A stretch of DNA of 64,000 bases from Candidatus Heimdallarchaeota archaeon. GTDB taxonomy: Archaea; Asgardarchaeota; Heimdallarchaeia; Heimdallarchaeales; Heimdallarchaeaceae. The stretch is from the NCBI GenBank assembly GCA_030603365.1, contig JAUVXV010000010.1, forward strand, positions 64,001 through 128,000. The letters run 5' to 3'. Of this stretch, positions 8,558 to 20,184 are shown one piece after another (position 1 is the stretch's first letter; every line of letters starts with the position of its first letter). Under the pieces are notes generated by a model. The model was not told the origin of the DNA. It saw only the letters and a program-made list of their open reading frames with translations, and ran no database searches. A program made the position numbers and the translations under genes.

Positions 8558-9550
8558 TTAAAAAATCTCGTCAGTATCGATTGTTGAGATTTCAAACATT
8601 GGTAATTGTTTTTCAGACCAAAAGGTTTGATTGTCAATCATATATTTGATAAGATAACTGGTTAAATCTGATTCAGATATACCATTATCTTTCTGAACTC
8701 GCAAACCTTGAATTTCTTTAATAAATTCAGTCAGAAGTTTCATTAAAAGACTGGTTCCTTTAAATTCTTCACTTCTGGTGGTAATTAACCAGCAAGAAGT
8801 TTGTTCATCGGCGGCCATAACAACTTGTCTACCTCCGATCCTCATGTATTCCAGTATTGATTCTGCATTTGTAGCAAATTTATAACGAATTACTGGGAAT
8901 GAACTTTCATCAACTATGTTATCATCAGCAGTTTTAATTCTAGCTTCAACAATTCCTGTTTCTGTTTTAATATAAGCTACAAAATAATCAACAGTGATAC
9001 CAGCTGTGATCAGAGTAGAAATTATAGCATTAGCTAACCAGTCAACAGTTTTGTTCAAATTCTTTCCTGTAATTGGAGAAATAGACATGTATTCAATATC
9101 ATGACCACCGGAAGGACTTGTAAAGATATTATTGATTGTTTTAACAACCTCTTCATCTATTGGTTTGTCCCAAGTATTAATCAAAACAAGAACAGGGGAA
9201 TTCTGTTTAATCCATTTGAGAGCTCGAACAAACCATTGTTTAGATTCATCTAATTTTTCTTCCTTGGTTCCGTCTACTACATAGATTAGTGCGTCTGAAC
9301 GAGAGAGGTAACTTGGCCAAAGAGAATTACGAAAAGGTTCTTTTCCACCCAAGTCAGTTAAACCAAGTCTCAAGCCATTGATTTTGACAATTTCTTGATT
9401 TATGCCATATGTAGAATAAGTTTCAGATATCTCTTCACGCAGGAGCTTATTGACAATGGAAGTCTTTCCAACTCCATCTAAACCTGCAATCGATACTGTC
9501 ATGTCTCTACTTGACACTGCTAAATCAGTACTTGTTTCTGACCCCAACAA
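8558..9550 (-). CDS. Arf/Sar-like small GTPase with a C-terminal longin-like domain
   Basis: G1 GLDGVGKTS, G3 DLGG, atypical G4 NTWD; about 150-aa alpha/beta C-terminal extension. Confidence 0.85.
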   Translation of the reverse strand: MLGSETSTDLAVSSRDMTVSIAGLDGVGKTSIVNKLLREEISETYSTYGINQEIVKINGLRLGLTDLGGKEPFRNSLWPSYLSRSDALIYVVDGTKEEKLDESKQWFVRALKWIKQNSPVLVLINTWDKPIDEEVVKTINNIFTSPSGGHDIEYMSISPITGKNLNKTVDWLANAIISTLITAGITVDYFVAYIKTETGIVEARIKTADDNIVDESSFPVIRYKFATNAESILEYMRIGGRQVVMAADEQTSCWLITTRSEEFKGTSLLMKLLTEFIKEIQGLRVQKDNGISESDLTSYLIKYMIDNQTFWSEKQLPMFEISTIDTDEIF

Positions 9551-14744: not shown

Positions 14745-15692
14745 ATGGAACTCAAAGGAATCGATAAGAAAATAACAGAGATACTTGAGAAAGCTAATCT
14801 AAATCTCGAAACAATAGCTGTTTCTACAGCTGAAGAATTATCTTCACTAGCTGAGATAGACAATAAAGAAGCTAAGAAAGTAATCAAAGCTGCTCAAGAA
14901 GAATTAGGTATTCAACCTATGACTGCTTTGAAATTCTTAGAGCATGAGTCAAAGAGAGGAAAGATTACAACATCCTCTACTGAGTTTGATACAATTCTAG
15001 GAGGAGGTATCTGGACTCAAGAGCTTACAGAACTTGCTGGATCCTTTGGTAGTGGAAAAACACAATTATGTTTTCAACTCTGTTTAAATGTTCAACTCCC
15101 AGTTGATGAAGGTGGATTGGAAGGAAATGCATTTTTCATAGATACTGAAAGAACTTTTTCTCCCAGAAGAGTTGTTGAAATTGCTTCTTATAGAGAATTT
15201 GACGTGGAGAAAGCGTTAGGTAATATATACATTGGCTCTGCTCTTAACACTCATCATCTTTTCAGTATAGTAGATGAATTAGAAGAAATCATCCCAGACA
15301 AAAATATCAAACTTCTAATAGTAGATTCCTTTGCATCACATTTCAGATCTGAATTCATTGGGAAGAATCGTTTAGTAGAAAGACAACAGAAGATTATGCA
15401 AATAGCAGAAAAACTTATTGCACTTGCTGTTAAATTTGATCTAGCTGTTGTCGTAACTAATCAGATTATTGCTAATGTTGAAGAGTTTCTTTTTGGTAGT
15501 CCTGAAGAACCAGCTCTTGGATTTGCATGGGCTCACAGACCTCAACAAAGGATTTTTCTCCGAAAATCACGAGGTAGCTCGAGGATTGCAAGACTTTTTG
15601 ACAGTTCAAGAATGCCTGAAAGAGAGGCTCTTTTCTATGTAACTGAAAATGGTTTATCAGATGCACCATTCTCTTCTGATTTCTACTCTTAG
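14745..15692 (+). CDS. RadA/Rad51-family recombinase paralogue
   Basis: N-terminal HhH domain, Walker A GSFGSGKT, FIDTE, LLIVDS, VTNQ; PALGFAWAH replaces PIGGHILAH. Confidence 0.9.
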   Translation: MELKGIDKKITEILEKANLNLETIAVSTAEELSSLAEIDNKEAKKVIKAAQEELGIQPMTALKFLEHESKRGKITTSSTEFDTILGGGIWTQELTELAGSFGSGKTQLCFQLCLNVQLPVDEGGLEGNAFFIDTERTFSPRRVVEIASYREFDVEKALGNIYIGSALNTHHLFSIVDELEEIIPDKNIKLLIVDSFASHFRSEFIGKNRLVERQQKIMQIAEKLIALAVKFDLAVVVTNQIIANVEEFLFGSPEEPALGFAWAHRPQQRIFLRKSRGSSRIARLFDSSRMPEREALFYVTENGLSDAPFSSDFYS

Positions 15693-17884: not shown

Positions 17885-18946
17885 ATGATGGAATACAATC
17901 AACCAGTAAGTTTTTCTGTAACAAAAAGAAACATAGCAGTATTAGATTTTGGGGTTACATCTCTCAAAATAGTCATTTTAGACCCAGTCCACCCAGAAGA
18001 GCCTTTACATTTCCAACGTATTTATCTTCCCTTGAGAACTAAAAAAGAGGAAGTTGAAAGTGTCCTCAAAACTCTTCTACGTTCTTATTCTGATTATCAT
18101 ATTCGCAAATTCATAATTACTACTACAAGTCCTCTATTTGCTTCTGCTCAGGAAACAGTTGAATATATTATTATGTCAGTGACTAAATTTATCCATCCAA
18201 CAAACATCACATTATACACTCATGATGAGAAGTTTGTTTCAATAAATGAAGCATTAGTCGATCCAACCAAGGTTGTTTCGGTAGGCTGGAAGGCGCTAGG
18301 AAAAGGATTATGGCATATGGTGAAAAAAGACGGATTAGTAGTTGATTTCTCTACCAGAACCACTAGCTTTATTCCTGTGAAAGATGGAAAAATTCTCTCT
18401 GAATCTCAGTCTGACTTCGAAAGGATGAAAAGAGATGAGTTGATTTTCTTTGGTTTCTTGGAAACAAATGTGGCATTCATACAACCAAGATTCGAGTTTA
18501 ATGGAGAAACATACAATCTTCCATTTGAACCTCATGTAATAATGGCAGATATATTTCTTATCACAGGCGATTTGAAATCTAATGATTATGTAACTGATAC
18601 TCCTGATAAAAAAGCAAAGTTTAGAGAAGATGCCTTAGATAGGTTGAAAAGAATGTTGTGCATAATAGACGATCATTTCAGTGAGAATGATTTAGTCAAA
18701 GTTGCACACATATTAAAAGTTCGAATGTTAGAGAAGATTAATCAGATAATTAATAAGAAATTACAAGAACATAATCTTTCAAGGATTTTGATAACAGGTA
18801 TTGGGTCAAATCTCCTCTATCAGTATCTCTATGAGAAAAATGAATCAAGAGATATCATTAAAGTATCCGATATATTAAAAACTGCAGAGATTAATCCTTC
18901 TTACAGTTTAGCTTTCATATACGCAACAAAAAAAGATGATGAATAA
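17885..18946 (+). CDS. MfnF-like / hydantoinase-oxoprolinase (ASKHA fold) protein with degenerate motifs
   Basis: LDFGVTSLK, VDFSTRTTSFIP, SDFERMKRDELIFFGFLETN and TDTPD align with MfnF-family motifs. Confidence 0.7.
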   Translation: MMEYNQPVSFSVTKRNIAVLDFGVTSLKIVILDPVHPEEPLHFQRIYLPLRTKKEEVESVLKTLLRSYSDYHIRKFIITTTSPLFASAQETVEYIIMSVTKFIHPTNITLYTHDEKFVSINEALVDPTKVVSVGWKALGKGLWHMVKKDGLVVDFSTRTTSFIPVKDGKILSESQSDFERMKRDELIFFGFLETNVAFIQPRFEFNGETYNLPFEPHVIMADIFLITGDLKSNDYVTDTPDKKAKFREDALDRLKRMLCIIDDHFSENDLVKVAHILKVRMLEKINQIINKKLQEHNLSRILITGIGSNLLYQYLYEKNESRDIIKVSDILKTAEINPSYSLAFIYATKKDDE

Positions 18947-20184
18947 TGGCTGAGAGAGCTGATTTGAGGAATAGAATCAATGTGATGTTATTTCACTTTG
19001 ATCAAAGATTAGGTCCAAGGTTACTGTTCAATGTTGCTGAGATTCAAGATACAAGAATAACAGCATCATTAACTCGACTAATGGATTTTAATTTCCTTGA
19101 AGAAATGAAAGCTATAGTTAATGCCATGGCCAATGTTGTATATTCAAGCATGTTCTTCTCCATTCCAAATCCTACAGCAAGAGGTGGAGTAGAGCAATTC
19201 ATGCTTTCTTTTATAATTTTTGATCCTACAATAACCGAATATCTAACAATCTCTTCTTTAGAAGAAGAAATGTCAAAGATAATAAGCAATCTAATTCTTC
19301 TCTCTGAAATGTTCATCATTATAACCTACAGTAATCCAGTGCTTGAGGATTTTCCCGAGGTAGAAAATACACTAAAATCATTGAGAGATAATGCAATTAA
19401 TGTTTTCCAAGACATCTTTTATGGGCAATTTGAGGGAACCAAGGATGCTATATCACAAATATTAGGTAAAATTGGTTTCGAAGCAGGTAAACAAATTGTA
19501 CAAGAACTGCGGATAGATGATGAAGGTTCAGTGAAATCTTATACTGAGGCCCTAGTTAATTCACCAATTCTTACAAGATGGGGAAATATTAACATTCTTC
19601 ATTTTGACCCGGGAGAAAAAGTAGCTACAATATCTTTAGATAGATCTATTTGGACAGAATCTCTTGGAGTAATTGCAACAAAAACCTGTGCATTCATTGA
19701 AGGAATGTTAGAAGCTATTTTCAGTAAAATTTTAGATGAACCAATCATCTGTGATGAGATGAGATGTGCCTCTGAGTATAGTTACGTTAAAGATTGTATA
19801 TTTCAGATAGCTCCAGGAGGAGGAAGTAGGGAGATAATAGCTTATAGAGAAGATCAAACTATCAAAGAGATGGGAGTGCAAGAAAGAGAAAAAACTATGG
19901 AGTTAATCACTTCGGCTATTGGAGAACAATTCTACTATGAACTAGATCCCATGATAAGATTAATCCAATTGTTTAACAAAGCACCATTCATTTCTGACCA
20001 TTTTATCCAAGAGTCAGAGGAAGAAGTAAAATTTCTAGTAGTTTGTAATTACTGGAGATATCCTAATGAAATAATGTGTAACAGCTGTGAAAAGTGGATA
20101 AGAAATTCAAGCAAATTTCCTGTTAAACTAGTTAAGAGTAAACATCGTATTTGTGAAATAACATATGAAACAGAGAGTCAATAG
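18946..20184 (+). CDS. Longin/uDENN-like domain fused to V4R domain(s)
   Basis: FHFDQRLGP and PNPTARGGVEQFMLSFI at the N-terminus; V4R C..IEGMLE...EMRC...C.F; Cys-rich V4R-like tail. Confidence 0.8.
   Translation: MAERADLRNRINVMLFHFDQRLGPRLLFNVAEIQDTRITASLTRLMDFNFLEEMKAIVNAMANVVYSSMFFSIPNPTARGGVEQFMLSFIIFDPTITEYLTISSLEEEMSKIISNLILLSEMFIIITYSNPVLEDFPEVENTLKSLRDNAINVFQDIFYGQFEGTKDAISQILGKIGFEAGKQIVQELRIDDEGSVKSYTEALVNSPILTRWGNINILHFDPGEKVATISLDRSIWTESLGVIATKTCAFIEGMLEAIFSKILDEPIICDEMRCASEYSYVKDCIFQIAPGGGSREIIAYREDQTIKEMGVQEREKTMELITSAIGEQFYYELDPMIRLIQLFNKAPFISDHFIQESEEEVKFLVVCNYWRYPNEIMCNSCEKWIRNSSKFPVKLVKSKHRICEITYETESQ

Follow-up and report, generated by a model that had tools for sequence, protein, structure and literature searches.

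The human RAD51 paralogues RAD51B, RAD51C, RAD51D and XRCC3 are cancer-risk genes. The standard model derives the eukaryotic RAD51 paralogues from RadB and places the RAD-alpha/RAD-beta split before eukaryotes (PMC3637515), so that an early separation of recombinase and mediator, offered by the initial annotation as an implication of the gene described here, was already the accepted view. A recent structural paper likewise treats RadB as the archaeal counterpart of these paralogues (PMC7618403). The human BCDX2 subunits lack FxxA and have an occluded pocket, and XRCC3 puts a smaller residue into a shallow pocket (PMC13186703). Among Asgard archaea, Matsuo et al. 2025 (PMC12722695) described a second RadA clade, and Ferlez et al. 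grouped the Asgard recombinases without reference to RAD51 paralogues, reporting that valine-glutamate loops are rare in Asgard RadA.

The window analysed here, a 64,000-nucleotide stretch from a Candidatus Heimdallarchaeota archaeon, contains a RadA paralogue gene (Table 1) whose product carries PALGFAWAH at 15510-15536, just where the initial annotation had placed it; we refer to this gene and its homologues as the PALG clade. This gene is probably the nearest living relative of RAD51B, RAD51C, RAD51D and XRCC3. Our literature search, the coverage of which was incomplete and which does not prove novelty, returned no report linking the clade to RAD51 paralogues. Matsuo et al. saw their second RadA clade, like the PALG clade a RadA duplication, in Heimdallarchaea and Gerdarchaea; it may coincide with the PALG clade or contain it, but that study compared RAD51 and DMC1 only and considered neither RAD51C, XRCC3 nor the motif.

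The protein scores 307 bits against the NCBIfam RadA model (TIGR02236, cut-off 361) and 96 bits against the RadB model (TIGR02237, cut-off 172), falling below both thresholds. Its AlphaFold model (pLDDT 87.8) has the RadA/RAD51 fold in full, N-terminal domain included, and can be aligned over its whole length with RAD51 26-339 (Z 36.8). The N-terminal HhH domain that had been described as retained is so as a fold, residues 8-54 forming four helices with pLDDT about 90, but its HhH sequence is degenerate and gave no match to Pfam HHH_5. The Walker motifs are intact, as had also been noted, and with them the Walker A lysine, E135, D194, Q240, H264, D286, R201, R213 and Q214. Missing are the FxxA phenylalanine and the L1, Walker A and FRPER arginines. 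The altered FxxA seen earlier reads QPMTA (14913-14927), with proline at a position that is phenylalanine in 80-90% of RadA, RAD51 and DMC1, and the L1 arginine position holds K, D or E in 152 of 170 homologues. We take the equivalent RAD51 arginine, R235, to be required for strand exchange, and RAD51 M158, the position occupied here by F130, is presumably part of the FxxA-accepting pocket. The equivalents of R201, R213 and Q214 are DNA contacts, namely R229, R241 and Q242 in RAD51 and R249 and R258 in RAD51C (PMC7618403). Residues 245-246 in L2 are V-E or V-D, resembling RAD51 V273-D274, and the rare valine-glutamate loops of Ferlez et al. may be PALG-clade proteins.

Table 1. Features of the PALG-clade gene, in positions of the window
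Feature	Position	Strand	Basis
RadA paralogue gene (PALG clade), 315 aa	14745..15692	+	intact ORF; Pfam Rad51 E=1.7e-66
N-terminal helical domain, residues 8-54, RadA/RAD51-like fold, degenerate HhH sequence	14766..14906	+	AlphaFold model, structure alignment
Altered polymerisation motif PMTA (PxxA replacing FxxA)	14916..14927	+	P58 in 153/170, A61 in 168/170 homologues
Walker A GSFGSGKT, without the arginine of RadA/RAD51 GEFRTGKT	15039..15062	+	sequence comparison
QLPxxxGG segment with 6-residue insert	15093..15116	+	alignment
F130, RAD51 M158 position	15132..15134	+	Y or F in 149/170 homologues
Catalytic glutamate E135	15147..15149	+	169/170 homologues
Walker B D194 to A197 (DSxA); A197 is a signature state	15324..15335	+	sequence comparison
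L1 region: R201, R213, Q214 kept; K207 replaces RadA/RAD51 arginine (RAD51 R235)	15345..15386	+	alignment
A221, signature state (L or I in RadA/RAD51/DMC1)	15405..15407	+	alignment
PALGFAWAH and clade-specific invariant R265-P266	15510..15542	+	homologue alignment
D286, RadA-type ATP-cap aspartate	15600..15602	+	167/170 homologues

The motif PALG-x-[AS]-W-x-H followed by an invariant RP occurs in 168 of the 170 homologues, the two exceptions being incomplete sequences, and is not a chance pattern. Close homologues are found in Heimdallarchaeaceae. When a profile of the L2 region was run on 400 Asgard genomes, members of the clade scored at least 73 bits and every other RadA at most 58; the gene was detected in single copy in 77 of 83 Heimdallarchaeia genomes and, outside this class, in three genomes, two from the family of Wukongarchaeum yapensis and one (G397) from another class with 9% contamination, with no member in the 314 other Asgard genomes. 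Carriers by name include Heimdallarchaeum, Kariarchaeota, Hodarchaeum and Wukongarchaeum. The motif was absent from all sampled prokaryotic RadA, RadB and RecA sequences outside the clade. In published trees (PMC12222021) eukaryotes either fall within Heimdallarchaeia or form the sister group of this class or of Heimdall plus Wukong, and the distribution of the clade fits all three placements. Conservation of the paralogue is close to that of canonical RadA (71% versus 76% within the family, 55% versus 56% to Hodarchaeales). The gene neighbourhood consists of housekeeping genes in a synteny that differs by family, and its comparison revealed no conserved repair gene near the PALG-clade loci.

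The same genome encodes three further RadA-like proteins and one short RadB-like protein. The separate canonical radA that the initial annotation had suggested looking for is present among them, on contig C16 (FQNA, GRG, PIGGHIVAH; 406 bits against TIGR02236), and therefore the PALG gene is an additional gene, not the recombinase. A canonical radA over the cut-off was found in 59 of the 83 genomes of the class. Genomes G027, G029, G031 and those of family f3, in two families of the order, contain no RadA reaching the TIGR02236 cut-off, and their best RadA-like genes are divergent (L174, L178, L179). Two more conserved RadA paralogue families occur in Heimdallarchaeaceae and Kariarchaeaceae (G000:C1:146492-147820, minus strand, and G000:C15:100007-101203, plus strand; loci L175, L180, L218-L220). 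In one of them the N-terminal HhH domain is duplicated and L2 is followed by GHW, and this family adjoins RAD51/DMC1 with weak support in several trees; the other is very divergent (GAPQSGKT, GGFVLGH).

Compared with the RAD51 paralogues of the BCDX2 and CX3/XRCC3 complexes, the PALG protein has in common ALGxxW after L2, DSxA after Walker B, A221, the loss of the FxxA phenylalanine and L1 arginine, the retention of the R229 and R241 equivalents and, with RAD51B, RAD51C and RAD51D, the N-terminal domain. It differs from them in that core identity is only 31-36%, its L1 is complete, the RQQ motif and the ATP-cap aspartate are retained, it has an invariant HRP of its own, and it is one gene, not a heteromeric chain of four. 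With RadA and RAD51/DMC1 it shares domain layout, fold, Walker motifs, catalytic glutamate, H264, D286 and the QLP-GG insert, and its best raw similarity is to RadA (41% to Sulfolobus RadA), but it lacks FxxA, the GG after L2 and the GRG arginine. RadB is likewise a non-canonical RadA relative without several recombinase arginines, likely doing the same kind of job; it has, however, neither N-terminal domain, insert nor ALGxxW, and RadB-like genes are separate genes in these genomes. In phmmer, profile and Foldseek/VIA searches against the PDB, RadA and RAD51 ranked at the top, sequence and fold being far nearer to these than to the paralogues, and this ranking is unable to decide ancestry. 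A relative-identity test that seemed supportive was dropped, since the effect was equally seen with three other divergent RadA groups.

Residue states were compared among 35 eukaryotic paralogues, 20 RAD51/DMC1, 54 other RadA-like proteins and 24 RadB. Four states, A197, A221, L258 and W262, are common to the PALG clade and RAD51B/C/D/XRCC3 and have a frequency of 0.00 in RadA/RAD51/DMC1. The eukaryotic motifs given in the initial annotation agree with PDB sequences: PALGESWGH in human RAD51C, PALGRSWSF in RAD51D, AALGNTWSH in RAD51B and PTLGISWAN in XRCC3 (entry 8gja). As controls, six RadA subclades and RAD51/DMC1 have only 0-2 weaker states in common with the paralogues. RadB has four weaker ones, K286 among them, where the PALG clade keeps the RadA aspartate; lysine occupies this position (RAD51 D316) in RAD51B/C/D, RadB and RecA, not in XRCC3. 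Since RecA has alanine at 197 and lysine at 286, neither position is a clean derived character. The four signature positions may represent one co-adapted repacking instead of four independent characters. The 6-residue insert, located ahead of the catalytic strand, is carried by RadA, RAD51/DMC1, the PALG clade, RAD51C and XRCC3 and is missing in all 24 RadB, in RecA and in RAD51D. Together with the N-terminal domain, the insert points to a RadA-type, not RadB-type, ancestor for RAD51C and XRCC3.

Phylogenies based on all columns recovered the PALG clade as sister to RAD51B/C/D/XRCC3 with 116 sequences (LG+G4, SH-aLRT 96) and with 148 sequences (PMSF, SH-aLRT 91), and in no case nested in canonical RadA, the position that the initial annotation had named as refuting its reading. 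A 57-sequence LG+C20 PMSF tree that included the N-terminal domain, RadB and divergent RadAs again joined the clade to the eukaryotic paralogues (SH-aLRT 96.2, bootstrap 97). Small LG+G4 sets on all columns grouped the eukaryotic paralogues with RadB instead, among them LG+G4 on the 57-sequence set (92.7), and the mixture model guided by that very tree reversed the grouping, a usual sign of long-branch attraction. Most eukaryotic and non-Asgard sequences were assigned by tree position with anchor sequences, and coverage was minimal or nil for XRCC2, aRadC, yeast Rad55/57 and named euryarchaeal RadA/RadB (one halophile each). The eukaryotic paralogues had been gathered by a search with the PALG-clade L2 region, a possible bias toward the clade for which removal of L2 served as control. 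With signature and L2 removed from core alignments lacking RadB, the sisterhood stayed (93.5/87; SH-aLRT 80 and 89 in the large set; 69). When the signature was taken out of sets containing RadB, the paralogues joined RadB (support 65-98); when it was taken out of an alignment extended by the N-terminal domain, they joined the divergent RadA-like P0244 (79/90), with the PALG clade close by. Because of this instability, the link to the eukaryotic paralogues rests mainly on the signature plus the distribution. P0244, from a Logan contig (run SRR22387873), is RadA-like and full-length; its ATP-cap residue is lysine, its Walker A is degenerate, it is encoded amid small unknown ORFs, and it attracts eukaryotic paralogues once the signature is removed.

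In simulations, which leave out parallel loss of function, the main rival, the PALG clade was recovered as sister in 12 of 14 data sets when this was true and in 2 of 36 when it was false. A grouping of the paralogues with RadB appeared in 4 of 14 data sets with the PALG clade as true sister and in 10 of 14 with RAD51/DMC1 as true sister; it thus arises as a long-branch artefact, and it carries little information because it is produced where another sister is true. In AU tests on the 57-sequence set P0244 was barely rejected as sister (p=0.049); the constrained searches behind all AU tests were short, so that the p-values of the rivals may be too low.

A common origin of the PALG clade and RAD51B/C/D/XRCC3, with the signature arising a single time, is in our view likely on the sequence evidence. 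Otherwise, a Heimdall-specific RadA duplicate would have lost recombinase function and reached the same repacked helix separately, perhaps as a mediator unrelated to RAD51B/C/D/XRCC3, which would then come from RadB or another lost lineage. We regard such convergence as unlikely. A RadB origin was never rejected by the AU test (p=0.26 in the smallest core-only set, 0.17 with 148 sequences, 0.099 with 57), it agrees with the placement of the eukaryotic paralogues in the literature (PMC3637515) and with the four weaker states including K286, and other relaxed RadA paralogues (P0244, P0228) also drift toward the eukaryotic ones. However, the RadB grouping behaves as described in the simulations and under the mixture model, RadB lacks both the N-terminal domain and the insert, the motif is absent from the sampled prokaryotic sequences outside the clade, and convergence does not account for its restriction to the lineages nearest eukaryotes. 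Descent of the eukaryotic paralogues from RAD51/DMC1 within eukaryotes, the archaeal motif being convergent or transferred from a proto-eukaryote, appears very improbable. It withstood the AU test in the smallest core-only set (p=0.34) and in the set without RadB and signature (p=0.24), but was rejected in the fullest, 57-sequence analysis (p=0.007) and in the core-only set without signature (p=0.008), with p=0.06 for 148 sequences, and the archaeal clade keeps RadA states lost by all paralogues, which argues against transfer from them. The pro-orthologue reading of the initial annotation is the best supported one, by the best trees and the distribution, and neither of the two outcomes that the annotation had named as refuting it was observed; it is weakened by the unrejected RadB origin (p=0.10-0.26) and by unstable support outside the signature, and membership in the RAD51B/C/D/XRCC3 lineage is likely but not established.

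The ancestry could also be right and the function different, the protein being a second self-contained recombinase or DNA-binding ATPase whose altered interface (linker proline, aromatic in the pocket) allows it to polymerise with no partner but itself. Its catalytic residues, H264 and D286 are invariant or nearly so, it is about as conserved as canonical RadA, and changes paired across the interface could give a private polymer; but the protein shares with the eukaryotic paralogues and RadB the loss of the L1, Walker A and FRPER arginines, and a canonical radA co-occurs in most genomes, and we consider this quite improbable. A nucleating or capping role seems most likely because the ATPase and single-stranded DNA residues are kept and the FxxA phenylalanine and L1 arginine are lost, so that by inference the PALG protein may work like a RAD51 paralogue.

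We propose that one duplication of full-length radA took place in the ancestor of Heimdallarchaeia, Wukongarchaeia and eukaryotes. The first copy would have remained the recombinase, canonical RadA, with RAD51 and DMC1 coming from a RadA of that kind. The second copy would have rebuilt the helix after L2 (GG to LG, a tryptophan and two alanines), lost the FxxA phenylalanine and L1 arginine, and survived as the PALG gene in archaea while expanding into RAD51B, RAD51C, RAD51D and XRCC3 in eukaryotes. The PALG protein would bind single-stranded DNA and ATP, join its neighbour without the normal FxxA contact, and nucleate or cap the RadA filament, alone or as a short homo-oligomer, with no strand exchange by itself. 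Given the shared ancestry, this helper mechanism seems likely; ancestry and RadA-helper role taken jointly are reasonably probable. On balance we favour the view that RAD51B, RAD51C, RAD51D and XRCC3 came from this RadA duplicate and not from RadB; the PALG gene would then be the single-subunit form in which the BCDX2/CX3 filament loader and cap survives, and the RAD-beta clade would be a long-branch artefact. What would be new, if true, is that the paralogues go back to a RadA duplication close to the Heimdall-Wukong stem and not to an ancient RadB. The accepted origin of RAD51 paralogues would then change, a eukaryotic-type DNA-repair component would be added to the archaea nearest eukaryotes, along with a phylogenetic marker for these lineages, a one-protein prokaryotic model of the four-subunit human complex would be available, and the change from recombinase to loader or cap could be tested with two genes of one genome.

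In Hodarchaeales (loci L082-L106) a conserved block unites the PALG-clade gene with uS2, RimK-like and PAC2-like genes and an AAA ATPase of the Vps4/katanin type, as identified by eye. The window itself also encodes an Arf-like small GTPase with a C-terminal extension (8558-9550, minus strand) and a V4R-domain protein (18946-20184, plus strand) with an N-terminus that, judged by eye, resembles longin/DENN, both typical Asgard eukaryotic-signature genes.
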